Below, in pieces: positions 981-64,000 of a stretch of 64,000 nt of DNA (position 1 is the stretch's first letter; every line of letters starts with the position of its first letter). A model generated the notes under the pieces. It did no database searches and was not told the DNA's origin. It saw nothing but the letters and a program-made list of their open reading frames with translations. The position numbers were made by a program, and so were the translations under genes. Source of the stretch: a virus; IMG/VR virus record IMGVR_UViG_3300045988_162372, one strand, 5' to 3'.

Positions 981-1646
981 TTATTTATTTGTAATAATTT
1001 TATCAATAAATCCATTATCAACAGCTTCTTGCGCTGTCATAATTGTATCTCTATCACACATTCTCTCAATTGTTTCATAATCAAGATTGCTATTATCAGT
1101 AAGAATTTGTGTTAGTTCCTTTTTCAGTATATCAATTTCACGTGCATGTATTTGAATATCCGATGCCTGTGTTCCTGGGGATATACCTGACATTGGTTGA
1201 TGGATCAAGAATCTTGCATGAGGAAGGATAAAACGTTTCCCCTTTGTTCCACTGCTTGCAATTATTGTTGCCATTGATGCCACCATTCCCATAGACACTG
1301 TTGAAACATCTGGTTTGATATAATTCATGCTATCAAGTATGACATAGCCCGAATATATGCTCCCGCCAGGAGATGCTATTTGGATTGTTATGTCAGTATC
1401 ACCTTGTTGCTCAAGCCAGAGAAGTTGTGCCGATATGATATTTGCCACATCACTATTGATTTCTGTGCCAAGAAAAACAATTCTATCCATCATGAGTCGT
1501 GAAAAAATAGATAGGCTTATGAGCGGTGAATTTCTTTCCTCAATAATTGATGGTTCAATATAGTTACAATAACTATCCAACATATTTGAACCAATCCCTC
1601 TGCTTAGAGCAAACTTTTGAAAATCTTTATATTGTTTATTTTCCAT
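981..1646 (-). CDS. clpP: ClpP-family (S14) serine peptidase. It could act as a prohead or regulatory protease.
   Basis: 221 aa. The catalytic-triad contexts match ClpP: GMVASMA (Ser), FLIHQPMSG (His) and MCDRDT (Asp). Collinear similarity extends over the whole length. Confidence 0.85.
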   Translation of the reverse strand: MENKQYKDFQKFALSRGIGSNMLDSYCNYIEPSIIEERNSPLISLSIFSRLMMDRIVFLGTEINSDVANIISAQLLWLEQQGDTDITIQIASPGGSIYSGYVILDSMNYIKPDVSTVSMGMVASMATIIASSGTKGKRFILPHARFLIHQPMSGISPGTQASDIQIHAREIDILKKELTQILTDNSNLDYETIERMCDRDTIMTAQEAVDNGFIDKIITNK

Positions 1647-2367
1647 CGTAAATTCTTTCTTTTGCTATATTATAATAATTTTCATCAATCTCTATCCCCA
1701 CAAAATTCCTATTCGTATTTTGACAAGCAATGCCCGTGCTTCCACTACCCATACAAAAATCCAACACATTTCCATTCTCAGGACAGTAGGATTTAACCAA
1801 GAATTTCATTAATTCCACTGGTTTCTGTGTAGGATGTACTTGGTCTTGTCTTCTCCATTTTTGAGGAAAATCAAGTATTGTTGTGGGGTGTCTTGTTCCT
1901 TTGTTATCCGTTTGAACTCCCTTAATGCCATATTTCAAATTATTCACCTTGTTTGGTGTATATTTCCTTTTATACGGCTCTCCTTTTTGCATTTGTGGCT
2001 CATAATAACTGCCACTATCCCCAAACACTAAAATATTCTCGTGTTTCTTCAAAGGCATATATTTGGCAGTCAATGGTGAGCCACATTTTGACTTCTTCCA
2101 AATAAGTTCGTATCTGAATTTACTGATATTGCTTAAAGCAAGTTCAAACGTATATGTTCCAGAACTAAACAAGACAATATTTCCTTTGGGGACAATAAGT
2201 TGATTCAAGCACTCCCACATCTTATCGAATGGTATCTTTGTATCAAACTTATTATTATGTATCCCATAAGGAGGGTCACAGATGATTGCATTGAATTTAA
2301 TGCCTTCTGTAATTAATTTGTGCATTTCCTCAATACAATCACCTAATATTAACCTTATTTCACTCAT
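1636..2367 (-). CDS. Beta-class DNA methyltransferase, probably N6-adenine (N4-cytosine not excluded)
   Basis: 243 aa. Motif IV (ICDPPYG) precedes motif I (FCMGSGSTGIAC). The gene overlaps the clpP start by 11 nt, and its ATG overlaps the upstream stop as TAATG. Confidence 0.8.
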   Translation of the reverse strand: MSEIRLILGDCIEEMHKLITEGIKFNAIICDPPYGIHNNKFDTKIPFDKMWECLNQLIVPKGNIVLFSSGTYTFELALSNISKFRYELIWKKSKCGSPLTAKYMPLKKHENILVFGDSGSYYEPQMQKGEPYKRKYTPNKVNNLKYGIKGVQTDNKGTRHPTTILDFPQKWRRQDQVHPTQKPVELMKFLVKSYCPENGNVLDFCMGSGSTGIACQNTNRNFVGIEIDENYYNIAKERIYDGK

Positions 2368-8563: not shown

Positions 8564-8774
8564 TCTTTATCCCACTTTGCCAGAAACCTTTTCTTTGCCA
8601 CATCTGCCTGAAAAAATCTTCAAGTATTTCGGCTGAAAGTTCCCTTATTCTTTTTCGTAATTCCCTTTCTTTAAGAAAATTATCCAAAGCTGTAGTAATC
8701 ATACTTCTAACTTCACTTTTGGATAGTTCCTCTCTGATAAGGTTTCTTACATATCTTTCTTCATTTACAGTCAT
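8556..8774 (-). CDS. Hypothetical protein, 72 aa, charged and helical
   Basis: ATG at 8774. It is the first gene after the intergenic repeat region and overlaps the next gene by 8 nt. Confidence 0.55.
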   Translation of the reverse strand: MTVNEERYVRNLIREELSKSEVRSMITTALDNFLKERELRKRIRELSAEILEDFFRQMWQRKGFWQSGIKNG

Positions 8775-8790
8775 TTTTTTAAATTATAGA

Positions 8791-8862
8791 CTTAATTACT
8801 TATATTCGTCACTTATAGGCTTAATTACTTATATTTGTTACTTATAAGGAAATTCACTTATA
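8791..8862. repeat. Tandem repeat of about 30 bp, 2.4 copies, containing five ACTTATA heptamers
   Basis: Unit A at 8791-8819 is cttaattacttatattcgtcacttatagg. Unit B at 8820-8849 is cttaattacttatatttgttacttataagg. ACTTATA occurs at 8798, 8811, 8827, 8840 and 8856, with spacings of 13, 16, 13 and 16. Confidence 0.8.
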
Positions 8863-8914
8863 TTATTCAGCTGTTCCTTATATATCATAAATATATATTT
8901 GCAAAAAGAAAACA

Positions 8915-10016: not shown

Positions 10017-10718
10017 TTACCTTAATTCTTTATATGTTTCAAATTCATCAGACATTAATGCTTCAGTCCTTAATTTAACTAATGCATTGTCTTTTATCTG
10101 TCTTACTCTTTCATTGGTAAGATGTAATTCGTTACTTATTTCTTCCAATGTCTTTTCCTTCCCGTCTTTCAAACCGAAATAATCAATCAATACTTTGATT
10201 TCCCTATTTTTCAAACATTTCATCAAATCTGTGATTGACGCTTTTCTGCTTTGTAAGTCCATTAGTTCATTTTCAAAATTTTCGTTAATGTAATTGGTTT
10301 CATCATATTTTGTATTTGTACAATTTGTGAAAACATAATCATCAATTGCGTTTATTTCCATATTCTTCTGTTGGTATTCCTCTATACATTCTTGGATAGA
10401 ATTTTTCACCCACCATACAGCATACGAAATAAATCTTATATTCTTGTTTCCATCAAATTTTTTAGCGGCTTTCATTAGTCCGACATTTCCTTCTGAAATC
10501 AAGTCTGAAAATGGAACTCCACTTTTTCTGTAAGCCTTAGCGATGTTCACTACGAATTTCAGATTTGATGTAACCAATTTATTCAATGCCTTCTCATCAC
10601 CTTGCTTTATCTTTTCAGCAAGTTCTTTTTCCTCAGCATTTGTCAAATGTTTATATTTCTTTATTTCACTGAAATAACTATCAATTTCTTCAAGTTTCTC
10701 ATATTTCTTTAATTTCAT
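10017..10718 (-). CDS. Sigma-70-family RNA polymerase sigma factor, compact, with regions 2 and 4
   Basis: Region 2 reads LVTSNLKFVVNIAKAYRKSGVPFSDLISEGNVGLMKAAKKFD...RFISYAVWWVKNSIQECI. Region 4.2 has the HTH LEEISNELHLTNERVRQIKDNALVKLR. Confidence 0.8.
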   Translation of the reverse strand: MKLKKYEKLEEIDSYFSEIKKYKHLTNAEEKELAEKIKQGDEKALNKLVTSNLKFVVNIAKAYRKSGVPFSDLISEGNVGLMKAAKKFDGNKNIRFISYAVWWVKNSIQECIEEYQQKNMEINAIDDYVFTNCTNTKYDETNYINENFENELMDLQSRKASITDLMKCLKNREIKVLIDYFGLKDGKEKTLEEISNELHLTNERVRQIKDNALVKLRTEALMSDEFETYKELR

Positions 10719-16127: not shown

Positions 16128-16135
16128 TATATTTG
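16128..16135 (+). promoter_or_regulatory. Bacteroidota-type promoter, -7 box TATATTTG
   Basis: The + strand reads gtaTTTG-20 nt-TATATTTGCACAAAAG. It is 18 nt upstream of ATG 16153. Confidence 0.7.
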
Positions 16136-17011: not shown

Positions 17012-18117
17012 ACTTTTAAGACGGTTTTTATATATTGCTTTCTTCTTTCTTTATTATATACTGTCATACCACAATATCTTATACCATTGAATTTCGCAGA
17101 ATCGGACTTACTTACATATATTACTTTATAATCCATTGTATATTCTTCTTTTGCATATCTTACTGTCGCAATTGAAGAAGATAGTCTTACATATATGTCA
17201 GAATCAGTTTCTTTTACACCATTATTATCTATTGCAGTATATACCTTTATTCTAACTTCATTACCATTCAAATCTATAATGTCAGGGTTCATAACTCCAT
17301 TTGTCTCCATACTAATATTTTCCTCAATGATAGGTTTTACAACATCAATGCTTCTTGCTGCCATTGTCTGTACTGATAATGTATTTGCCGTAATCTCCAT
17401 ATTCTCCAAGTCTGTACAATATACAAATTCTTCACTCTCTATTTTCGGTAATGTCAAATCAATTCCCTCATATTCTATAGATAATACAGCGTATATATTC
17501 CTTAAATCACTATGGGTTAAAATTACTTCATATCTTACTCCTGTAGTGATTATACCATGAGATGATATTGCCAAATTATAAGTCTTACTTTCTTGATTAC
17601 CAGTGTCATCATCCAATGGAGTTACTGAAAATTCAAAGGCGTTGTCGTATGATAGCCTTATATTTTCTTCCGCATCATATTCATTAATAGCGTTTATGTA
17701 AAAACCTTTTCTTCCACCTTTAACTGTTACTTTTATAACTTGGCTATTCTCTATTTCCGCTGGAAATGTCAATTCTATTATTTCTGGTGTTACTTCAAAA
17801 TTAATATTCTCTTGTGTTATATCCAATACTTGAAAAACTTCGTGGTCTGCCTTGTGATAGAATACAATATATCCTTCTTTCGTATAATTAGTGATATTAT
17901 TGGTTGACGGAACGATTGTAACTTCCCCTAAATTCCCGTTTGAAGAATTTCTCTTGACTGTTATCCAATCCATATCAGTTACAATGTCGTAACACTTTGA
18001 ATTACTAGATCCGTTCACGGTAACAGTTATTGTCTGTGGTTCAGGATTAAGCGCATCGAATGTTAAAGTATTCATACTTAATGCCAATGTATATTTACTA
18101 ATATCACCTTTCATCAA
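17002..18117 (-). CDS. Virion-associated protein, 371 aa, with Ig-like/BACON-like N-terminal pattern
   Basis: The pattern is TITVTVNGSSNS...DMDWITVKRNSSNGNLGEVTIVPSTNN...EGYIVF, which resembles BACON domains (from memory). It is the last gene of the structural operon. Confidence 0.5.
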   Translation of the reverse strand: MMKGDISKYTLALSMNTLTFDALNPEPQTITVTVNGSSNSKCYDIVTDMDWITVKRNSSNGNLGEVTIVPSTNNITNYTKEGYIVFYHKADHEVFQVLDITQENINFEVTPEIIELTFPAEIENSQVIKVTVKGGRKGFYINAINEYDAEENIRLSYDNAFEFSVTPLDDDTGNQESKTYNLAISSHGIITTGVRYEVILTHSDLRNIYAVLSIEYEGIDLTLPKIESEEFVYCTDLENMEITANTLSVQTMAARSIDVVKPIIEENISMETNGVMNPDIIDLNGNEVRIKVYTAIDNNGVKETDSDIYVRLSSSIATVRYAKEEYTMDYKVIYVSKSDSAKFNGIRYCGMTVYNKERRKQYIKTVLKVKG

Positions 18118-20618
18118 TCAAAATTCTCAAGTATTAATATGGCAGTAGATGGAATGACTTGCATAACATAATTCAATATTACATCATTAAAGTATTGTTT
18201 ATATAACCTACTGCTATGATTTATATTTCTCATTCTTATTACCTTACTGTTAAGATAATAGTTCTGTTTCAATTCATCTTTTGATACGATTTTAACCTTT
18301 CTATCACTATCTATTATTGCATTTGTAACGTCAAATGAATTGTCTTCTGCTTGTTCCACATATTCTTGTGCCAAATTATTAGTGTCTATTGCCCACTTGA
18401 AAGGTTGTGCCATATACTCGTAATAACTCTTTCCATTGTCATATTTTCCATATCCAACATGAGGATTATTTCCTATATTGATAGATATGACATTTTCCAA
18501 GTAATCAGCCTTTTTCTTAATATTCTCATCCGTTGCAAATGCTGTATTTTCCCATCCAGTAAAACTTGTGTCTGCCAAGTTATATTCATTGGTTACATAG
18601 AATGTATGTTTTACAACTGAAAGGTCTGTTATATCAGGGTAATAATCTATTATATTATCAATGTTTACAACATAATAAATATCCCCATTGCTTGCATCAT
18701 TTCTTGTTACATTCAACAAATCACTAATAGTTGATACAACTTTAAGATAATTGAAAGTTTCATTATAGGTAGTCATATCATCGCTTCCGTCCGAACCCCA
18801 TCCACCTGCTGTTTGGAAATATAAATATCCATCGTATTCCTTTGAACTGTCATAATAAGGAACTGTTATCAAATCATCTTCGTATGTTGTTGTAGTACCC
18901 TCTGTTACGGCCTTAGTTCCTATACTTACATCTTTCAACGGAACACCACTATACGGGTCTTCTTCATCATCATATAATCTCGGCTCTTGCTTATTGTAGT
19001 TTATATTGTAGAAAATGCCATGTACAATATCTGTATTTGCAGGAACAACAGAGCCATATTCTTCTTCTATAACATAGTCGCCTTTATCACTTCCAAAACC
19101 AAACATACCCATTACCATGTCAATGGATTGAACCGTTCCTTTGGTTGAGAATATCCTTTTGGAATTCAATATCATTCTTCTCATAAACTCGTTGTCCATT
19201 TTCTGAGGGGTTATGTTATCAGTGTTATATGCAGAATACCAATTCAATCCTTGCTCTTCAAGGAATTCCCTTGTTAATTTCATGTTGCTGACATCAACTA
19301 CCGCTGTATCATTCTCATTCTGTTTTAAGGCTGGTATTGTCGAATATGCCTCCCATCCTAATAATTCTGCTTTATCTGAAAGAAGTGCGTCAGCTTGATT
19401 ATTGAAACCGTCATAAGTTACACTATTCGTAAATTTGATACCATCTATTTCCCTTTTCAAATCATCAAGACTTCTTCCATACAGCCTTAATAATTGTTCA
19501 ACCCTTGTACCACCATCTATATTATCTTGTTCTTCTCCGTCGCTATATTCTCTTGTATAAGTCCAATCATAGTTCTTAATTGCTTCATGCGTCATACTTC
19601 TATACAAGTTGTCACATTCAGTGTTATCAAAATACGTTGCAATAGAAATAAGATTGTTCACAAATACCGTATAAGAAGGAGACTCTATATCAATCTGATA
19701 ACCAACTGACGGCCAAATATAATCACGATTGACATATTTTGTACCTGTTTGTCCTTCAATCGGTGTAATAAAAGTATTCTTGTATAATGGCGTTGTACTT
19801 CTATTTAATAGCTGTCTTTCAAACCCTTTAAGATTATTAAAATATTCCTCTATAATTTCATCTTTTGGCTTCACTACGAAATTTTGATTATCTGAAATAT
19901 AAATAACCATATTCTCAATCCACAATCCCTTTATTTCTAACGAATTGTTAATTGTAATAGTAAACAACACTCTTTCTCCATAGGAAAAATTTTGAGGGCA
20001 AGCCATGATCTCTTGATAATTATCACTTACTTTAATGTAGTAATCTGTTATATCATTTCCGTTCAACTGATAATTTTGGTAAGAATATGACATATATCTC
20101 ATTGGATTAATATCATCAGTAATCTCTATCTCTTTGTGATGCAAATCAATATTGAATGGATTACTAATAAAATAACATCCTGTTACATCCTTAAACTCAT
20201 CACCATCAACTTCTTGCAAGATTGAATTTGTTCCATTGAATTGTGCAGGAAAATCACGAATAATGCTTTCTATTGAAGCCCTTACCAGTTCAAGACATGA
20301 GCCAAAATAAGCATAGTCACGCAAATCATTACTTGAAGTATTTACTTTTACCTCGTTAGTATCAGCCTTTGCATCTTTTACATCATTATAAGAATATGTA
20401 CCAACCCAAGAACCATACTTGTGCTTCTTTTGATAATCTGAAACATTACTAATTGTGAATACGAAATTACTATCCTGATAATACGGTTTTTTACCAGGAA
20501 CGAATCTATTCAAACTACCAGTAGTTACCCAATCCCTATATAAAATAGTACCTTTGGTAGTCTGTTGGTGTTTCTTGCGTAGAATATAACTGCTATTATA
20601 TTTTATATATCTTGCCAT
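18114..20618 (-). CDS. Large structural protein of the baseplate/tail-fibre module, 834 aa
   Basis: Long ORF in the structural operon. It shares an ATGA overlap with the downstream gene. Confidence 0.7.
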   Translation of the reverse strand: MARYIKYNSSYILRKKHQQTTKGTILYRDWVTTGSLNRFVPGKKPYYQDSNFVFTISNVSDYQKKHKYGSWVGTYSYNDVKDAKADTNEVKVNTSSNDLRDYAYFGSCLELVRASIESIIRDFPAQFNGTNSILQEVDGDEFKDVTGCYFISNPFNIDLHHKEIEITDDINPMRYMSYSYQNYQLNGNDITDYYIKVSDNYQEIMACPQNFSYGERVLFTITINNSLEIKGLWIENMVIYISDNQNFVVKPKDEIIEEYFNNLKGFERQLLNRSTTPLYKNTFITPIEGQTGTKYVNRDYIWPSVGYQIDIESPSYTVFVNNLISIATYFDNTECDNLYRSMTHEAIKNYDWTYTREYSDGEEQDNIDGGTRVEQLLRLYGRSLDDLKREIDGIKFTNSVTYDGFNNQADALLSDKAELLGWEAYSTIPALKQNENDTAVVDVSNMKLTREFLEEQGLNWYSAYNTDNITPQKMDNEFMRRMILNSKRIFSTKGTVQSIDMVMGMFGFGSDKGDYVIEEEYGSVVPANTDIVHGIFYNINYNKQEPRLYDDEEDPYSGVPLKDVSIGTKAVTEGTTTTYEDDLITVPYYDSSKEYDGYLYFQTAGGWGSDGSDDMTTYNETFNYLKVVSTISDLLNVTRNDASNGDIYYVVNIDNIIDYYPDITDLSVVKHTFYVTNEYNLADTSFTGWENTAFATDENIKKKADYLENVISINIGNNPHVGYGKYDNGKSYYEYMAQPFKWAIDTNNLAQEYVEQAEDNSFDVTNAIIDSDRKVKIVSKDELKQNYYLNSKVIRMRNINHSSRLYKQYFNDVILNYVMQVIPSTAILILENFD

Positions 20619-40841: not shown

Positions 40842-40989
40842 AACTTCAAAAATTTTATATTAGGTATTAAATATATAGTCTCCAAAAGACGAAAGTTTAG
40901 CACCTAAATTTTAAGATTTCTTCTAAGTCGCTGACTATCATAGCGAAAATTTTTTAAAATTTATTTTACTATAAATTCCTGAGTTCTCG

Positions 40990-44940: not shown

Positions 44941-44980
44941 GATACTTTTACTATAAATTAAACAATTTTACATTAATTTG

Positions 44981-45067
44981 TAGTCAAGGTGGGAGTCGAA
45001 CCCACACAAGTATTTCTACTTCCAGATCCTAAGTCTGGTGCGTCTCAACCAATTGCGCCACTTGACC
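44981..45067 (-). tRNA. tRNA-Leu, anticodon UAG, type II with a long variable arm, no encoded CCA
   Basis: Hand folding gave an acceptor stem GGTCAAG/CTTGACT (G1-U72 pair) with discriminator A. The D arm is GCGCAATTGGTTGAGACGC. The anticodon stem is CCAGA/TCTGG with loop CTTAGGA. The variable arm is AAGTA-gaaa-TACTT. The T arm is GTGGG-TTCGACT-CCCAC. Confidence 0.85.
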
Positions 45068-47544: not shown

Positions 47545-47552
47545 CAAATATA
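47545..47552 (-). promoter_or_regulatory. Bacteroidota-type promoter, -7 box TATATTTG
   Basis: The minus strand reads gaTTTG-20 nt-TATATTTGCAAAAATG. It is 54 nt upstream of ATG 47491. Confidence 0.7.
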
Positions 47553-57319: not shown

Positions 57320-60300
57320 TTATATTGTTCTATCATTTATGTTTTTATTATATGCTTGTGTAATATAAAATTCACTCGAATCTTCTTTTATATCATTACC
57401 TAATGCCCCCTGTTCTTTACTATATTCTTTTCCTATGTTGTATTCCATTCTGTCTGACCTGTTATCGAACAGAGAGTTGTTGCTATAGAAATTGAACGTC
57501 ATGGCATTTTGTAATCTTCTTACTGGGCCTGTCATATCACCACCGCCAATAAATTTGAAACTTATTGTAACATTTGCCAATAACGGAATAACACCAGCTC
57601 CACCTTCCGTATTTAAATCCCACATTAATGGTTCGTAATTTATTGAAATATTATCAATAACAATCATTTGATTGTAAAAATCACCCAATCTTAAAACGCA
57701 AAAAGGAGGTCTTCCAAATGCTAAATTAGAAGCTGTGTTGTTTGGTGTCATTGAATTTGTAGTGTCAGAAGCACCTATTGTATTTCCTTGTCTTGTACAT
57801 TGCTGTAAAAATGTCAATCTTGCAGAAAATCCTTCTGGTGTCATTGAGTGAAAGGCGGGGTCAAAATATTGTATCTTATCCATCAATCTATCGAATATGA
57901 TAGGGTCTGTTTGTTTCAATGCCTTGAAAAAATAATATTCTTGGTCATATCTAACAGTATTATTTTCCTGTGACCTTTCTTGTGATTCACTTGTCTGTGT
58001 TTCATTTATACCTACAAGATTGTTATTACTATCAACATCTACCATAACAAGTTCTCCGTAATGAGAGCTATTTTTATCTGTCACTTCTATCCATTTATTA
58101 CCGTTGCTGTCTTCATAATAAGTCTTACCATTGGTGGATGTTTTTGTTTCATAACCTATATATTTTTGATTACTGTTAGATACAGTATTACCACTCCCGT
58201 CTATTGTTGATTGGATTGTTTCAGACTGTTTTACTGTCGTACTATTTTTTAATACAATAGACATTTTTGCAGATCTATATTTCTTTGAATCTTTTTCCGA
58301 AACATCTTGTGTGCTAACTCTTTTTGATGGGTCGGGATTAACAACTTCTTTTGTACCACTTAGACTACTTTTCTTTTCATTATTGAACCAATTAACAACA
58401 GTTTCTATTCTTTGCATTGCAAGTAAATAATTTCTATTTGTATTAACTTGACCACTTGCATTGTTACCATGAGAATTAGAATAACCTATACCATTGATAT
58501 TTGTAATTTCATAATTATCCAATATATCTTTTAAGGTTTCGACTCTTTCTTGTGATACCCCTTTATTGTTGATAAGATAATTTCTAATATCATCCGAATT
58601 AGCAATAGCTGCTGCTACTTCAGCAAATGAATATATATATTCATTGTCTGTTTCATTGAAAATTTCTTTAACAGCATCTGCATTTACATTTAATCCGTAA
58701 TCTTCACTATCTTCATAGTTTGCATTAACCAATAAAGTTTGGTCATAAGTATTTTTATTTACATCCCCCCTACTTGGAACTTCATATTTACCATCAATTC
58801 TATAATACCATCTTTTTGTAGTGCTTGCAGGATATGTCTTTGTATTTTTATTTAACGCAGTTCTCCAAGCCATTCTTGTACCTATAATAGGCCCAGTTCT
58901 ACTATCGCTCCTATCTGTTACATACCCTTGACCCATTTCATAGCCATGACCATTGAAATTATTCATACTTTCATAATTAAATTGTAATGAATAATCTTCA
59001 TAAGGATTTTCATTCTTTTTCTGTGCATTTGAACCACATAATAGATATGCCATTGCCTCTACAGATTCTCCAATAGTATCATATACACCAGAATAATTAT
59101 TAGGGTAGAAAACATAGAATGTTATCTCTTTAATATCCTCTGGTATTTCAGGTTCAACTGGTGGTGGATCTAATTTTACAGGGTCTGCTTTTGTGTAAGT
59201 ATTAGTAAATTCGGGTTCTGTATATTCATCAGTCAAAGGTGTAGGTTTTACCGCATCTTTTATAGTTCCATCATCACATCCTGCAAAGAAACGTAACAAA
59301 TCGCTATCAGATATGCTATTCTCTTTTCCATTTCCCTTTCCACCATGCCATGAAACATAGTCAATTATTGACGGGTGGTCAACTACCATAAGAAAACTTA
59401 AATTTCCACTCCTTATAGTATTCGTATAAGTATAAACATCTTCACCCCTACCTATGAATGTATGGTTAGTCCAATTTGCTTGTGTTGTTTCATTGAATTG
59501 TATTCCATAAGGAGGAAACCACATTATTCTTCCACCCATAGGCCCACGTTGTTCCCAAGATAAAGCTCTTTCAAAACTATATGGATCATAGCCTTTCCAA
59601 GCAAGATTTTCTATTGAGAACATACATTGTTTTGCATGTATCTTCTTGTCTTGTTCAGAATTGAATTTAGGAGCTATGTTTACAAAACCATTGCTGTTCA
59701 ATACAGAATAATCCCATCTTGAATTATCTTTTTTCCAATAAGCGTTTGCTCCTTCACTAAACGAATCCCAATCATTAAAATCTCTTCTACTTTCAACGGA
59801 TACATTTTCATTATCACCTCTTTTACCACTAATCGTGATAAATGGACGTATTAATCTACTAAGTCTATTATATTGATAATGGTGAGTCCATACACGACAA
59901 TAAGGATTATTATATCCATTAACATTATAAAAACCTGTACCACCATCAAATTCAGCTTCTTTAAGAAGAAGATTCCTGCCGTGTGACATTCCATATTGAG
60001 ATTTAGCGTCAGTATCATCTGTTACACCACCTTCTCCATGACTTGTACAGAAACCAGATATAATGGTATTTATCTTGTTTGCATTAAATAGATTTTTAGT
60101 CTTCGATAGAATACTATCCCTATTTACAGCTTGCCATTTATGATTAGAATATCGTCCTTCAAGTCTATTAAGCTCATCTGGGACGAGATTTTGTGTTCGG
60201 GTATATAATTCATTACCGTTGCCATAATCATTGAAAGAAGACGGATTTACATCAGTTTTACGCACATAGTCATCGTATCTATACTGCATATAGTTCTTAA

Positions 60301-60616
60301 CGTAGTCCACATCACTTGTGTAGGATGGATGAACTGAGTTTGTATCCAACATCCTTGAATTACCATAAGGCATAGCATCATTACCGAGCAAATTCATTGT
60401 TGTATCCTTTTCAAGAACATTCAATCTCATCAGACGTTCCATAAATCTACGGTTTTTAAGGTTATTATCACACAACCCCTCTATTGATATGCCCAACATT
60501 GTTTCAAGCAAGTCATCGGTCTTGTTTCTAAACTTAGTTGCAAGATTATCAATTGTTGTCTGCATCGTATTATATATGCTCGTCAATACACTTCTATTGT
60601 TATTTGTACTAGGCAT
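57320..60616 (-). CDS. Large tail/baseplate-hub region protein, 1098 aa, with a possible OmpA/MotB-like peptidoglycan-binding insert
   Basis: The OmpA_C-like pattern is EITFYVFYPNNYSG ... INGIGYSNSHGNNASGQVNTNRNYLLAMQRIETVVNWF (about nt 58382-59128). The segments FPPYGIQFNETTQANWTNHTFIGRGEDVYTY and FGRPPFCVLRLGDF resemble tail-tube-junction proteins (from memory). Confidence 0.55.
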   Translation of the reverse strand: MPSTNNNRSVLTSIYNTMQTTIDNLATKFRNKTDDLLETMLGISIEGLCDNNLKNRRFMERLMRLNVLEKDTTMNLLGNDAMPYGNSRMLDTNSVHPSYTSDVDYVKNYMQYRYDDYVRKTDVNPSSFNDYGNGNELYTRTQNLVPDELNRLEGRYSNHKWQAVNRDSILSKTKNLFNANKINTIISGFCTSHGEGGVTDDTDAKSQYGMSHGRNLLLKEAEFDGGTGFYNVNGYNNPYCRVWTHHYQYNRLSRLIRPFITISGKRGDNENVSVESRRDFNDWDSFSEGANAYWKKDNSRWDYSVLNSNGFVNIAPKFNSEQDKKIHAKQCMFSIENLAWKGYDPYSFERALSWEQRGPMGGRIMWFPPYGIQFNETTQANWTNHTFIGRGEDVYTYTNTIRSGNLSFLMVVDHPSIIDYVSWHGGKGNGKENSISDSDLLRFFAGCDDGTIKDAVKPTPLTDEYTEPEFTNTYTKADPVKLDPPPVEPEIPEDIKEITFYVFYPNNYSGVYDTIGESVEAMAYLLCGSNAQKKNENPYEDYSLQFNYESMNNFNGHGYEMGQGYVTDRSDSRTGPIIGTRMAWRTALNKNTKTYPASTTKRWYYRIDGKYEVPSRGDVNKNTYDQTLLVNANYEDSEDYGLNVNADAVKEIFNETDNEYIYSFAEVAAAIANSDDIRNYLINNKGVSQERVETLKDILDNYEITNINGIGYSNSHGNNASGQVNTNRNYLLAMQRIETVVNWFNNEKKSSLSGTKEVVNPDPSKRVSTQDVSEKDSKKYRSAKMSIVLKNSTTVKQSETIQSTIDGSGNTVSNSNQKYIGYETKTSTNGKTYYEDSNGNKWIEVTDKNSSHYGELVMVDVDSNNNLVGINETQTSESQERSQENNTVRYDQEYYFFKALKQTDPIIFDRLMDKIQYFDPAFHSMTPEGFSARLTFLQQCTRQGNTIGASDTTNSMTPNNTASNLAFGRPPFCVLRLGDFYNQMIVIDNISINYEPLMWDLNTEGGAGVIPLLANVTISFKFIGGGDMTGPVRRLQNAMTFNFYSNNSLFDNRSDRMEYNIGKEYSKEQGALGNDIKEDSSEFYITQAYNKNINDRTI

Positions 60617-60767
60617 TGTTTAATCTTCCTCAACTTTTATGAAATAAATTATATCACCTTTCTCCATAAGTATCTGCAACATTACTTTTTCATATATACG
60701 CAAAAATTGCTTATCAGATTATATGAATATAGTTAAAATCAAAGTGTCATTTCAATTTTTTTCCTCA

Positions 60768-61090
60768 CCAGATATTAATGTTAACAACTAGTCGTAGACA
60801 TTAATATTGTTTTATAATAATATTGTTAACAATAATATAGAATTATTATATTTTATTTTTTATTTTTATATAATAATGTTAACGATATTATTGTCTACAT
60901 TATTGTATTATTGTTTACTCTAATATTGTTAACAATAATAAACTATATATCTATACAATATTATTGTTTATATTATTATATTATACTAGTATACATTAAT
61001 GATGTAAAACAATAATATACTATACTAGTATATAATATTAATGTTTAACAATAATAATGTTAACAACTAGTTGTATACAATAATATCTGG
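60768..61090. repeat. 323-bp noncoding island of extreme AT content, dense in palindromes and iterons, bounded by 25-bp imperfect inverted repeats
   Basis: The terminal repeats are CCAGATATTAATGTTAACAACTAGT (60768-60792) and ACTAGTTGTATACAATAATATCTGG (61066-61090), matching at 22 of 25 positions. GTTAAC occurs 5 times and ACTAGT 4 times. The 20-mer TAATATTGTTAACAATAATA occurs at 60818 and 60921. TATACTAGTATA occurs at 60982 and 61021. The octamer ATTATTGT or its complement ACAATAAT occurs at least 9 times. Confidence 0.85.
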
Positions 61091-61135
61091 AAAAAGCAAA
61101 ATATCAAAGTGCAAAACTGAACACTTGAAAATAAG

Positions 61136-61205
61136 GCGTTCTAAGAGGTTTTCTTATTCAAAGCGATAACTTGTATCCTTTTGAAGAAATAATCGCTCAG
61201 AACGC
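61136..61205 (-). terminator. Nested imperfect inverted repeats downstream of the tape-measure gene. They are terminator-like or form a structured RNA.
   Basis: GCGTTCTAAG at 61136-61145 pairs with CTCAGAACGC at 61196-61205 at 9 of 10 positions. An inner AGCGAT/ATCGCT pair is present. On the minus strand it is followed by CTTATTTTC. It lies 25 nt after the stop at 61230. Confidence 0.45.
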
Positions 61206-61229
61206 ACGAAAACAGTCAAATTTCGTATT

Positions 61230-64000
61230 CTACTTCCTTAGATAGTCATATTGTGTAACACTCCTACCTCCATTGATGGATTTTCCGACTTCATCAGAAA
61301 TCATTTGAGATAATTGCCGTATCAGCATCGGATTCTTATTTAATAATTCCATAATGTCAATACTTTGCCCATTCGCTTCAAGCCTTACACTACCAGATAA
61401 TTCAACTTTTACTGGTTTTATTATAATTTCAGTAGGCATTGCATTTACACCCATTTGGCTTGCAAGCTCATTTGCTGATACCGTCATAGGATTTCCATTG
61501 CCAAAAGCCATTGCATCATCTGAAGAAACAAACTGCGATTTTCCTATCGGTTCTGACGGAACAACACTATTATTGGATAAGTTGTTATATATTTCATCAA
61601 TACGTCCAAATACTCCATTAAACAATGTATCAAAAGGCCCACCAGTCTTTGCAAAGATGGCATTATCTTGAGGGTTTGTCTTCGCAACGCCATCATTGAT
61701 AGATTTAACAGTTTTTGCTGATACCGTCATAGGATTTCCATTGCCAAAAGCCATTGCATCATTGACTGATGACATTGAAAAATTACTATCAATAGGTTTA
61801 ATACTATTTGCAGCAACAGTCATTGGTTTGCCATCGCCTGACATAAAAGCATCATTTGCTCTTTGTGTGGGATATGCCTTTACTGATGATAATGACTTAT
61901 CAGCTTCATAGGTTGCTTGATTTTCTTTGAATTGAACATAAGAAGGTGAGCTACCATTAGGGTTATTTGGGTTGTACCCAGTTTTTTGATAAATGTCATT
62001 CAAAACGCTAACAATTGCTTCTCCATATGTTTGGATATTCTTAACCACATCATCGGCTGATGCTTGATATGCTTGTGCATTTTGGGCGAGTGAATTTTCA
62101 TATACTTGTGTGGCTTTATTTACATTTTCTGTAATTTTACTAACATATTCATCAAGTTTGGTATTAAAATCTTCCTGTTCTTTTGCAAGCCTTTCATTCA
62201 TATTAGCAGAAAATTGTCCACTTTCTACTAATTTATTTGAAAGTTCACTCAAATTACCTTCTGTAGCACCTCTAAACAGTTCTGTAAATGATACAAGTTT
62301 AGCCATACCTTTTTCCATAGTGTCTTCATATGTCTCTCCTTGTACCATACCTACATTTTGCTCATTCACATCCTTGACATTCATCTTTCGACCATCAATG
62401 GTATTCACCATCCATTCACCGTTTTCATAATAAGCCTTATTAACAAGTGCCTGCTGTTGGTCTCCTGTTAAATTTTGATTTACACCTGTTACCTTATTTT
62501 TCTTGATATTATAAGTTGCTTGCGCCCTTACATCTTCAATAGATTGCCCAGATGCTTCAGCAAAAGCTCTCATTAATTCTTGGTCAACTTGATTAAAATC
62601 GACATTACCTGTCTTCTTATTGAAACGTCCCATGCCTTTTGTCATATTATTGAAACGCTTCATAAGAGATTCTGGGTCGTTAAATGCTTCATAATACATA
62701 GCAAGAGGATCCGCATACATAGCATATCTTCCGCCTAACACCTGTATTTTAGCAGCTTTCGTTATGATGTTTTCTAAACCTCCACTTTGTATGTTATCAA
62801 GAATTTGAGGAACGTTAGCCATATTGAATCTGACATTTTGCGCCCATTTAGCCATATCAGCCAATCCCTTAACACCGTCCTTGAAAGTAAATTTATTAGC
62901 CATTTTCATGTTATTGACCATATCTTTCATATATTTTCTCCCATCAAGACCCATTTTGTTAAGTTTTTTAGCTATATCGGAAAACATATCGACAGTTCCG
63001 CTAACACCTATATTAAACAGTTCTGCATTGTTAGCTAATTCAGCAGCGGTTTGAATATCTCCACCGAGATATTTTTTAGAAAATGCAGCTTGTTTTGTCA
63101 AATCACTTTCATTCATCATCATATTTCTACCACCAGGAGCATAACTTTGTATAAGTTGCATTACATCTTGCGCAGTTAAACCGTATGTTCTTGCAAGTTT
63201 AGTGGTTATCTGATTCATATAAGACGAAAACGTTTCTAACTGTCGTCTATCTGTAATACCCTTACCAATTCCTGAATTAAAAGAAATGTCTTGAAAATTC
63301 ATAGACCATTGCTCTACTGTTTGAGCCATTTTTTGATACATCTTTTCAATTTGATTGGCTGTATCTAATACGCTTTTCTTTATCTCAGTAACATCCTCAG
63401 TTTGTTTAGTCAATGCGTCAAGTCTTTTTTGCTCAAAATTCTGTGTAATTTTTGCAAAATTTTCATAGTTAGCTTGTTGAGCATTTAAATTATTGGTTGC
63501 ATTTGTAATATCTTTTATAAGGGTGGTTTCTCCTTTTGTAATAGCAGCATCTGTAATTCCTCCAAAATCTAACCCTACGAGTCCTGTTACTGAATTCACC
63601 ATTCCAGCTCCTGTTACAGCACCCAATTTACCATCGGTTGCCATATTTTTGAAACCACCAGTCGTATTTTCTCCATATTTCTCGGCAAGTTTAGCCTGAT
63701 TTCCGAAACTTTGTACATTGTCAGCACTTGTACTACCTCCCACAGCTCTATTAATACTACTAGTCCACGGATTTTCCGCTGTTAGTCTAAGATCTTCAAC
63801 GGCAAGTTTTGCATCTTCACTTTCGGCATTTAACAATGTTTGTCTTTGTTGATATGCCCTACTTTCTTGTCCTCGTTCATATTGTCCTTGTACAAATTTC
63901 TGACGTTCAGTTTCGATTTTTTGTGTTTTGGCAATATCTTCATTCAATTTTTTTACTGCTGTATCAATATCAGTTTGAGCAGACAACCTTTCCCATGCAG
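61230..64000 (-). CDS. Tail tape measure protein. The N-terminus lies beyond the window end.
   Basis: More than 920 aa. The track start at 63986 is TTG, and the frame stays open to position 64000. Composition is helical and Gln/Ala/Asn-rich. A triple internal motif is present: (D)AMAFGNGNPMTVSA twice, plus DAFMSGDGKPMTVAA. Confidence 0.7.
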   Translation of the reverse strand, partial: AWERLSAQTDIDTAVKKLNEDIAKTQKIETERQKFVQGQYERGQESRAYQQRQTLLNAESEDAKLAVEDLRLTAENPWTSSINRAVGGSTSADNVQSFGNQAKLAEKYGENTTGGFKNMATDGKLGAVTGAGMVNSVTGLVGLDFGGITDAAITKGETTLIKDITNATNNLNAQQANYENFAKITQNFEQKRLDALTKQTEDVTEIKKSVLDTANQIEKMYQKMAQTVEQWSMNFQDISFNSGIGKGITDRRQLETFSSYMNQITTKLARTYGLTAQDVMQLIQSYAPGGRNMMMNESDLTKQAAFSKKYLGGDIQTAAELANNAELFNIGVSGTVDMFSDIAKKLNKMGLDGRKYMKDMVNNMKMANKFTFKDGVKGLADMAKWAQNVRFNMANVPQILDNIQSGGLENIITKAAKIQVLGGRYAMYADPLAMYYEAFNDPESLMKRFNNMTKGMGRFNKKTGNVDFNQVDQELMRAFAEASGQSIEDVRAQATYNIKKNKVTGVNQNLTGDQQQALVNKAYYENGEWMVNTIDGRKMNVKDVNEQNVGMVQGETYEDTMEKGMAKLVSFTELFRGATEGNLSELSNKLVESGQFSANMNERLAKEQEDFNTKLDEYVSKITENVNKATQVYENSLAQNAQAYQASADDVVKNIQTYGEAIVSVLNDIYQKTGYNPNNPNGSSPSYVQFKENQATYEADKSLSSVKAYPTQRANDAFMSGDGKPMTVAANSIKPIDSNFSMSSVNDAMAFGNGNPMTVSAKTVKSINDGVAKTNPQDNAIFAKTGGPFDTLFNGVFGRIDEIYNNLSNNSVVPSEPIGKSQFVSSDDAMAFGNGNPMTVSANELASQMGVNAMPTEIIIKPVKVELSGSVRLEANGQSIDIMELLNKNPMLIRQLSQMISDEVGKSINGGRSVTQYDYLRK
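61471..61762 (-). repeat. Exact 49-nt direct repeat within the tape-measure gene
   Basis: tttgctgataccgtcataggatttccattgccaaaagccattgcatcat occurs at 61471-61519 and 61714-61762. The two copies are 243 nt (81 codons) apart. A third, degenerate copy lies near 61811-61857. Confidence 0.9.

Follow-up and report, generated by a model that had tools for sequence, protein, structure and literature searches.

A classical layout of bidirectional origins places inverted binding sites on either side of an A/T-rich unwinding element, as in the archaeal origin recognition box and DNA-unwinding element arrangement (ORB/DUE) and in oriS of herpes simplex virus (HSV). The homologous regions (hr) of baculoviruses are imperfect palindromes centred on a restriction-site hexamer, which serve as enhancers and as origins and occur in several dispersed copies per genome, and oriE of phage T4 is located in the baseplate gene region. 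The T4 origins share no common motif, and the iteron cluster of oriE is conserved only in close relatives (PMC3016281). Here we describe a 323-bp AT-rich island at positions 60768-61090 of the viral record IMGVR_UViG_3300045988_162372, of which a stretch of 64,000 nucleotides (nt), called the window throughout, has been analysed; L-numbers denote loci fetched for comparison, and gene sense refers to the - strand. DNA identical to that of the window is present in human-gut assemblies, including a contig of 312,870 bp, and the source is an uncultivated jumbo phage of ~313 kb from the human gut. The island is a cis-acting element that most likely gathers DNA-binding proteins, and we tentatively favour, with chances short of even, its reading as an origin-like site, in which paired putative binding sites surround an unwinding element and replication would initiate.

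Architecture of the AT island

The island lies in a noncoding gap of 613 bp (60617-61229), which extends from the stop codon of the open reading frame (ORF) 61230-63986(-) to the ATG, at 60616, of ORF 57320-60616(-). This gap, described in the initial annotation as unusually long, is indeed the longest gene-free gap of the window, the next gene-free one measuring 455 bp and holding a tRNA; bigger gaps between minus-strand genes exist in the window, but these contain plus-strand genes. The G+C content of the core, first put at about 10-15% by hand count, amounts to 10-14% in segments of 100 bp, and all 323 bp taken together have 15.8% compared with a window mean of ~32%. The lowest 200-bp segment of the 64 kb falls in the island (11.5% G+C), and the runner-up anywhere else reaches 21%. 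Only ORFs of 32-38 amino acids (aa) have been found in the island and gap, which, together with indels among relatives that are not multiples of three, rules out coding DNA. The Rfam 15 covariance models, run on both strands of 58000-64000, gave nothing at E <= 1, and a megablast of 60000-62000 against GenBank phages gave no match. ENA and Logan assemblies, made independently, agree fully on the island sequence, which excludes an assembly artefact; the island is real and non-random.

As a whole, the island forms an imperfect palindrome centred, as had been proposed, on the GTTAAC at 60928-60933, within which the midpoint of its borders, (60768+61090)/2 = 60929, falls. Its arms of 101 nt each (60768-60868 and 60990-61090) are 70% complementary, and its single-strand self-folding lies far above that of shuffled sequences (z = -7.1 as DNA, -9.5 as RNA). 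The repeats described in the initial annotation have been recovered as reported. The 25-bp inverted ends, CCAGATATTAATGTTAACAACTAGT at 60768-60792 and the inverted copy at 61066-61090, match at 22 of 25 positions, with 0 expected in shuffles, and the island holds five of the 12 GTTAAC and four of the 6 ACTAGT hexamers of the window. The exact 20-mer TAATATTGTTAACAATAATA, with its dyad ATTGTTAACAAT, occurs at 60818-60837 and again at the symmetry centre (60921-60940), 103 bp away (0.09 expected), and has the 14-bp perfect palindrome TATTGTTAACAATA as its core; the 12-bp palindrome TATACTAGTATA is found at 60982-60993 and, at a distance of 39 bp, at 61021-61032; and nine of the window's 19 copies of the octamer ATTATTGT lie in the island (4 on the + and 5 on the - strand). 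Perfect palindromes of at least 12 bp number five compared with 0.75 expected. The basic unit of the island is the pentamer A[AT]TGT, of which 20 copies on both strands have been counted against 3.2 ± 1.7 in composition-matched shuffles, mostly arranged as 12-bp dyads of the form WWTGT-NN-ACAWW. At least eight such dyads, plus half-sites, are present, with centres near 60782, 60796, 60827, 60880, 60895, 60930, 61061 and 61075; two of this form, AATGTTAACGAT (60875-60886) and ATTGTCTACATT (60890-60901), stand together at 60875-60901 and are followed by direct ATTATTGT repeats at 60899 and 60907. A few recurring dyad motifs thereby account for 35 of the 51 G/C bases of the island.

Both ends are composite sites. 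The left one (60768-60807), nearest the downstream gene, has CCAG in front of a 36-bp near-palindrome (made up of the dyads AATGTTAACAAC and CGTAGACATT, in this order, with TAGT between them), and the right one (61051-61090), nearest the upstream gene, has CTGG behind the same 36-bp near-palindrome. The two near-palindromes match as direct repeats at 32 of 36 positions; because each end is itself a near-palindrome, the ends are direct repeats as much as inverted ones, and the strictly inverted part is confined to the outermost CCAG...CTGG. A tract of 37 nt consisting of A/T only, with T runs (TTTTATTTTTTATTTTT, 60841-60877), is the least stable duplex of the window and a candidate unwinding element, the length of which differs among relatives through small indels.

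Where the two ends differ from each other (GTTAAC versus GTATAC), they do so by double changes that keep each local dyad symmetric and not the complementarity between the arms, which favours recognition by a protein dimer over the formation of one long hairpin. Consequently, the cruciform-forming recombination hotspot considered in the initial annotation has been weakened: the palindromy exists, but the long arms are only 70% complementary and the end differences preserve the local dyads. A hairpin or cruciform of this kind might be cut by a phage nuclease of the SbcCD/Mre11-Rad50 type and thus seed UvsX-dependent recombination-dependent replication or recombination. The palindromy of the whole element would suit such a fragile site (70% over the 101-nt arms of the window, 75% over arms of 126 nt without a spacer in the relative L140), as would the strong self-folding, the SbcC-like protein, calcineurin-like phosphoesterase and UvsX-like recombinase encoded by the phage, the mosaic breakpoints located just upstream within the neighbouring gene, and the contigs L003, L147 and L085, which end at or inside the island. 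However, the complementarity of the arms is low away from the ends, substitutions maintain local dyads instead of arm pairing, the perfect arms of the relative L002 are separated by 191 bp, a distance that disfavours cruciform extrusion, and the contig breaks are equally explained by poor coverage of AT-rich DNA. We regard a cut palindrome as quite unlikely.

Conservation and turnover at the junction

Within the sub-lineage of the window, the island diverges from the window by 5.6% in L001 and 7.7% in L016, compared with 16-21% and 23-38%, respectively, at the fourfold sites of the adjacent gene and 13% and 16% in the adjacent noncoding leader. The divergence of the island is thus 3-5 times below that of the fourfold sites, and judged by this comparison the island is under purifying selection. 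In a four-way alignment of the window, L001, L016 and L138, the right end (61021-61090) is the most conserved part, with 2 of 70 columns variable, followed by the left end with 4 of 43, and 15-24% of the columns vary in the interior. The first copy of the 20-mer is not conserved, its GTTAAC being gone in L016 and L138, and the second copy is kept in the window, L001 and L016 and altered in L138; the first TATACTAGTATA (60982) is absent from L138, and the second one lies inside the invariant right-hand block. Interior dyads lost in L016 or L138 include the GTTAAC of the first 20-mer, the central GTTAAC and the first TATACTAGTATA. With ends near-invariant and interior dyads lost, the terminal sites are the selected parts, and the interior repeats are secondary and dispensable. 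The pairs of 20-mers and of TATACTAGTATA stressed in the initial annotation are therefore present, but they belong to the less conserved parts of the island. Taken over the whole island, dyad columns are variable in 14 of 133 cases and non-dyad columns in 34 of 190, which is a trend only (p = 0.08); the contrast that stands out clearly is the one between the ends and the interior.

The alignment of related phages, suggested at the outset as a check, has been based on relatives of the downstream protein from IMG/VR and metagenomes, plus a graded protein-database series with flanks fetched separately, and it has placed an island at the same junction in most sampled relatives in which this protein is at least 52% identical. 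At 100-74% identity (window, L001, L138 and L016), the gap measures 611-664 bp and carries the window's form of the island. In L140 (78%), where the gap measures 496 bp, an almost pure A/T core is enclosed by two exact copies of a 37-bp self-palindromic site that stand 192 bp apart, and L142 (60%) has a gap of 362 bp with a small inverted repeat. Two relatives at 56% are L143, with eleven ACTAGT sites and 34-nt arms of 88% match in 366 bp, and L002, with 34-nt arms of 94% match, 191 bp apart, in 615 bp. L145 (55%) shows hairpin-like arms of 36 nt (92% match, 224 bp apart) in 374 bp, both L003 and L147 (54%) terminate within an AT island, and the 319-bp gap of L148 (52%) is CTAG-rich with CTGG...CCAG at its ends. 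L144 (56%) and L149 (51%) carry other sequence in gaps of 573 and 828 bp, with decayed ORFs in L149, and the junction becomes compact in L150 (48%, 23 bp) and in ~45 loci at 47% or below (4-82 bp). Departures from the compact pattern are L027, which has a 145-bp mini inverted repeat containing TATACTAGTATA, and loci with a small ORF in the gap; L023 has other sequence at the junction.

Between sub-lineages the plan has thus been kept and the sequence replaced: two near-identical, palindrome-rich ends of 34-60 nt flank 120-270 bp of nearly pure A/T. The element is lineage-specific and stable in position, and its architecture is conserved while its sequence turns over. Paired sites which are alike within a genome and unlike between genomes suggest co-evolution with a binding protein. 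For L140, an inversion of the core relative to that of the window was considered, and the local alignment scores are nearly equal in the two directions (66 forward, 64 reverse), as is expected for a palindromic element. AT-poor spots at L003:8880 and L010:10700 were also considered as islands and have turned out to be coding DNA. The 828 bp of L149 (positions 520-1347) hold three consecutive broken ORFs, one with ...IIIENPPPI, and look like a decayed inserted gene, which makes the junction a hyperplastic spot.

The search for further copies, likewise suggested initially, has confined the terminal 24-mer AATGTTAACAACTAKTYGTAKACA to the two island ends, both in a 216.6-kb contig of a relative and, with no other occurrence, in IMG/VR; the same holds for every fetched relative carrying this island type, and the 25-mer end of L002 is found only at its own two island ends within a 282-kb contig and across IMG/VR. 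The 64-kb window contains no second copy of the island, and the island dyads have not been found in its other intergenic regions. As a pair, the exact 20-mer occurs in IMG/VR only in the L001 contig; 21 additional single matches do not lie in AT-island DNA, miss the other motifs and have been read as chance. Among the first 58 fetched loci (~580 kb), TATACTAGTATA is limited to this junction. The island is single-copy. No target-site duplication abuts the ends in the window, as had been noted (flanks ...CCTCA/CCAG and CTGG/AAAAA), nor in L001, L016 or L002, and no presence/absence polymorphism has been seen among the relatives at 74-100% carrying this island form. The initial proposal of an insertion resembling a miniature inverted-repeat transposable element (MITE) has therefore largely been rejected: inverted ends are present, but target-site duplication, dispersed copies and presence/absence polymorphism are all missing, and a multicopy MITE in particular is rejected by the lack of further copies in the contigs and IMG/VR sequences searched, together with that of a target-site duplication.

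A broader variant of this proposal, in which the island would be a selfish or neutral palindromic cassette (MITE-like, PeSL-like or expanding in situ) with ends homogenised by gene conversion, draws on the plasticity of the junction, which holds different island types, decayed ORFs (L149), other sequence (L144, L023) or nothing. The terminal repeats would fit as well, and relative to compact relatives the whole 613-bp gap is extra, not the island alone. Against a cassette stand not only the strict single copy and the missing target-site duplication, but also vertical inheritance with a divergence 3-5 times below that of fourfold sites and nearly invariant ends, and no transposase has been seen. 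We consider the cassette unlikely.

All eight assemblies with the window's island type (window, L082-L084, L001, L016, L138 and L139) are collinear, although consensus assemblies can hide a minority orientation, and one Logan contig (k=31) passes straight through the island. Three independent contigs stop at or inside their own island, namely L003:1-108, L147:1-87 and the start of L085 (window ~60750); this could stem from extreme A/T DNA being poorly covered, from breaks or from heterogeneity. These observations bear on a further possibility, that a recombinase flips the segment in the manner of fimS and thereby switches a promoter of the tail operon. The size of 251-323 bp, the inverted ends (25/25 exact in L002) and the site upstream of an operon would fit the invertons of gut Bacteroidota, and a junction motif of distant relatives lies antisense inside the island; viral invertons have been proposed only recently (PMC13501310). 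Yet every assembly has the same orientation, the ends are as much direct as inverted repeats and in L140 exact direct repeats, and both ends of L002 carry the same outward-facing box, so a flip would change nothing. Moreover, no recombinase has been found among the window proteins scanned and no canonical promoter inside the island. An invertible segment is highly improbable.

Proposed replication initiation, rival functions and genomic setting

Among the four readings offered initially (replication origin, protein-binding array, cruciform hotspot and MITE-like insertion), the comparative evidence favours the pair of binding array and origin through constraint, fixed position and architecture, and single copy. 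In the mechanism we propose, a sequence-specific, probably dimeric, phage-encoded DNA-binding protein would assemble on the island. The working parts would be the two terminal composite sites, 36-bp near-palindromes of TGT-NN-ACA dyads around ACTAGT, which bracket ~240 bp of nearly pure A/T, predicted to be the easiest-melting DNA of the window. Occupying the two ends and, with lower affinity, the interior dyads, an initiator would open the A/T core, onto which the DnaB-like helicase, the primase and the single-stranded DNA-binding protein (SSB) of the phage itself would load. As in T4, the island may be one of several redundant and evolutionarily labile starts backed by recombination-dependent replication; redundancy of this kind would explain the relatives without an island.

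Single copy, constraint, co-varying end sites, a meltable core and terminator insulation are expected of a site at which a higher-order protein complex forms. With regard to an origin in particular, an easily melted A/T segment and clustered repeated dyads are both present, the phage encodes a T4-like set of replication and recombination proteins of its own, and the island is insulated, lying behind a conserved terminator-like stem-loop and, in contrast to many intergenic regions elsewhere in the window, having no canonical promoter.

Several points weigh against an origin. The GC-skew analysis recommended in the initial annotation has revealed no inflection (-0.21 on both sides), and gene direction does not change at the island; in T4, by comparison, the more active origins sit at points of transcriptional divergence (PMC3016281). 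There is no adjacent initiator gene, the flanking genes being structural, and no Rep-like family has been found among the window proteins scanned, many of which have no family match. DnaA boxes occur at chance level in the window, with none inside the island, and the would-be iterons, the interior dyads, show little conservation. The ~45 relatives at 48% identity or below have no island, and L144 and L149 (51-56%) carry other sequence, which implies that the island is dispensable or replaceable; the junction is also generally plastic. Finally, origin candidates have been compared within 64 kb of a ~313-kb genome, and a second repeat-bearing gap exists at 8773-8864. This gap, 413 bp long and just upstream of a small unannotated ORF, contains a 29-bp tandem repeat in ~2.4 copies (TTATAGACTTAATTACTTATATTCGTCAC), and it could equally be a cis element.

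A wider formulation is possible, if rather doubtful, namely that the island represents an undescribed class of fast co-evolving cis elements in jumbo phages of gut Bacteroidota, with matched palindromic sites and a pure-A/T core. The element would serve as a start of replication or else as a deliberately fragile palindrome, at which a phage nuclease of the SbcCD/Mre11-Rad50 type would set off recombination-dependent replication; in both cases no replication-initiation site would have been mapped earlier in this uncultivated clade.

The remainder of the gap bears on transcription. A conserved stem-loop on the - strand (61136-61205, with a tail to 61127) lies between the upstream stop codon and the island; it consists of a 10-bp stem GCGUUCUGAG/CUUAGAACGC, in which 61196-61205 pairs with 61136-61145, an inner hairpin and then CUUAUUUUC, and G-U pairs and compensatory changes preserve the stem in L002 (56%). 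It is probably a terminator, alternatively another RNA element; a scan of 60300-61500 for intrinsic terminators, defined as a G+C-rich hairpin plus a T run, has returned none, this stem-loop included. Around the island itself, T runs precede and A runs follow on both strands, which is the reverse of a bidirectional terminator. A direct repeat flanks the island, with AATATCAAAGTG at 61100-61111 (gene sense CACTTTGATATT, containing a TTTG like the Bacteroidota -33 box) and AAAATCAAAGTG at 60735-60746 on the opposite side; these 12-nt copies (CACTTTGAT in gene sense) stand 10 nt and 22 nt outside the island ends, and the one at 61100-61111 is kept in L001, L016, L138 and L140. A leader of 151 nt on the - strand (60617-60767) connects the island with the ATG of the 1098-aa gene, and a block of ~45 nt upstream of this start codon is common to the window and L002.

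Many intergenic regions of the window contain TTTG, 19-21 nt and (GTAG)TAnnTTTGCA, i.e., the -33/-7 promoter pattern of Bacteroidota, several of them with a hairpin before it. The host accordingly belongs to Bacteroidota, and E. coli-type promoter matches in the region, including TGATATAAT at 60648-60656, have been discounted in favour of the TTTG/TAnnTTTG type. Promoters of the form TTTG-N19-21-GTAGTATATTTGCA are found, for example, at 47552, 43472, 38164, 45097, 2882 and 13546 (-) and at 16128 (+). No canonical TAnnTTTG promoter has been found in the leader, the island or the remainder of the 613-bp gap.

These features could also be accommodated by transcription control of the baseplate operon, in which a phage repressor or activator would use the terminal sites as operators and loop the A/T core. 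The core would then hold a non-canonical promoter, perhaps for a phage sigma factor, and the downstream operon would perhaps be uncoupled from the upstream gene. The position directly upstream of the operon and directly downstream of the terminator-like stem-loop suits looped operators, and given a long intergenic region that lacks the canonical promoter, some other signal must drive the 1098-aa gene. A sigma-70-family factor is encoded by the phage, and the region holds 23 sigma-70-like hexamer pairs compared with 10.2 ± 3.5 in shuffles. In the invariant right-hand block, TTTG, 19 nt and TATTATTG lie one mismatch from the host -33/-7 pattern and are overlapped by the terminal palindrome, each end of L002 bears an outward-facing TATATTTG box, and distant relatives have a junction-specific dyad, AAACTATATATTAATATAG, in their short gap, a copy of which is found in the island. 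Arrays of TATACTAGTATA in Polaribacter, flanked on both sides by promoter-like sequence, likewise suggest operators. However, more than 10 dyads over 320 bp at 10-14% G+C go far beyond the need of known operators, the promoter-like features differ between island types (L140 has no near-canonical box), and promoter calls are unreliable in DNA of 85-90% A+T. Since the dyads occur nowhere else in the 64 kb, the putative regulator would moreover have a single target. Control by looped operators is, in our estimate, the main rival of the origin reading, possible but improbable.

The dyad AAACTATATATTAATATAG is common to seven distant relatives with compact junctions (L017, L018, L025, L037, L044, L057 and L058), where it stands 20-40 nt upstream of the start codon and is confined to this junction within each locus. 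Its near-copy lies in antisense in the islands of the window (60939-60958, +) and of L001, and ACTATATATTTAATA, which resembles it, lies ahead of nrdD near window position 40880.

Beyond this clade, TATACTAGTATA pairs spaced within 10-40 nt have been found in 30 stretches of IMG/VR and in 23 stretches of bacterial or archaeal genomes, which by our estimate is far above chance expectation. They occur upstream of terminase genes, beside a primase-helicase gene, in intergenic DNA of Polaribacter, in Firmicutes and in archaea. With contexts this heterogeneous, TATACTAGTATA has been rejected as a marker of one phage-element family, and we take it to be a generic, operator-type palindrome bound by dimers and not diagnostic. 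Repeat arrays of the ACTAGTAT type with paired TATACTAGTATA have been seen in unrelated phage contigs of IMG/VR (L086-L114) and in genomes (L115-L137); in Polaribacter, three sites are 22 bp apart and have promoter-like sequence flanking them.

The arrays near terminase genes touch on a role as a packaging (pac) or centromere-like partition site, at which a small terminase or a protein of the ParB/ParR type would bind the clustered short palindromes. The pac site of phage P1 consists of two hexamer-palindrome clusters that flank a centre, and the single-copy island has two such clusters around its own. In some unrelated phages, terminase genes are directly preceded by paired TATACTAGTATA arrays, and the island is where several contigs end. 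However, the island lies near no recognised par or terminase gene, no terminase having been recognised anywhere in the window, the 312,870-bp contig neither starts nor ends there, and the TATACTAGTATA arrays elsewhere are heterogeneous, some beside primase-helicase genes and some in bacterial intergenic DNA. We consider packaging or partition very unlikely.

The phage belongs to a clade without a cultured or deposited relative. Neither a tblastn of both flanking proteins against GenBank phages nor a search of the Protein Data Bank (PDB) with their sequences has given a match. The replication and recombination genes of the window comprise a DnaB-like helicase, a primase, an SSB-like protein, a UvsX-like recombinase, an SbcC-like protein and an exonuclease; NrdD with its activase, a calcineurin-like phosphoesterase, and gp6-like and gp25-like baseplate proteins are also encoded. 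Placement of the island inside a tail operon, as stated initially, is plausible in view of the downstream genes, which encode a baseplate-family protein, a 2116-aa protein with a lysozyme domain and the gp25-like and gp6-like proteins; the only grounds for calling the upstream gene a tape measure are its position and size, a weak helical-repeat match and 81-aa repeats within it.

In this upstream ORF of 918 aa, an exact 49-nt direct repeat has been noted (61471-61519, 61714-61762 and 61807-61855). The exact copies are 243 nt apart, with a third copy of 67% identity, and correspond to internal repeats of 81 aa such as tape-measure proteins have. At the 49-nt repeats, a gap interrupts the alignment of this ORF to L001, which suggests variation in copy number, and identity to L001 drops to 55-60% upstream of ~61700, marking a mosaic breakpoint within the ORF. 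Elsewhere in the window, a sigma-70-family factor with regions 1.2, 2 and 4 is encoded at 10017-10718 (-), an N6/N4 DNA methyltransferase at 1636-2367 (-) and ClpP at 981-1646 (-), and the 455-bp gap that precedes the UvsX-like gene contains a tRNA-Leu gene at 44980-45067 (-). In two contigs of this phage, L082 (ERZ1314577 NODE_1, 312,870 bp) and L083 (ERZ919640 k127_53856, 99,467 bp), the record coordinates of one gene coincide; the start of both contigs therefore lies at about window position 19,984, inside ORF 18114-20618, and may be an assembly breakpoint common to the two or a physical end.

Knowledge of how large uncultivated phages of gut Bacteroidota initiate replication or time their late genes is very scarce, and the island offers a concrete handle on this question. 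End sites that change together, lineage by lineage, predict a co-evolving DNA-binding protein. If the origin reading holds, the island would be a landmark for peak-to-trough estimates of replication rate in metagenomes and a part for vector building; if it were a control region or a programmed break site, it would show how a conserved tail module became independently regulated. As a practical warning, several assemblies break at the island.

Comparison with described systems

A full-text literature search with the island sequences has returned primers only, apart from one operator: the promoter DNA that was crystallised in complex with ST1710, a protein of the MarR family, includes the 14-bp palindrome TATTGTTAACAATA (PMC2724296). 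This likeness indicates that such a dyad can serve as a binding site for a dimer; the system is, however, an unrelated archaeal one, and a match over a short AT-rich palindrome implies no homology.

The likeness to T4 oriE lies in a noncoding repeat cluster in the structural or baseplate region of a large myovirus-like phage, which has its own helicase, primase, SSB and UvsX-type recombinase and in which the repeats are conserved only in close relatives. The island differs in that it is built from dyads of both orientations, among which two terminal sites dominate, and in that no promoter, rep gene or strand switch has been identified at the island, where origin activity is putative. With the archaeal ORB/DUE origins, boxes I and II of HSV oriS, and lambda-type iterons next to an A/T block, the island shares matching dyad-symmetric sites that bracket the most meltable DNA, as well as an overall size of 200-330 bp; it has no sequence similarity to any of them and no identified initiator.

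The baculovirus hr resemble the island as AT-rich, noncoding, imperfect palindromes built on 6-bp palindromes, which here are GTTAAC, ACTAGT and GTATAC, and a dual role in replication and transcription is conceivable by analogy; unlike the hr, the island is single-copy in the contigs and IMG/VR sequences searched. Bacterial MITEs such as the Correia elements of Neisseria are comparable in their length of 250-320 bp, terminal inverted repeats, noncoding nature and fold into a long hairpin, and possibly in promoter boxes facing outward from the ends, as in L002, but the island occurs once per genome, is inherited vertically under constraint and has no target-site duplication. Invertible promoters, i.e., fimS of E. 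coli and the invertons of Bacteroides, share a segment of ~250-320 bp with inverted repeats immediately upstream of an operon; the island differs by its single orientation, by ends that are also direct repeats, and in that no invertase or internal canonical promoter has been found. Taken together, the kind of element is familiar, an A/T-rich control or origin region with dyad repeats, and its sequence, its host clade and its position in a tail module are new.

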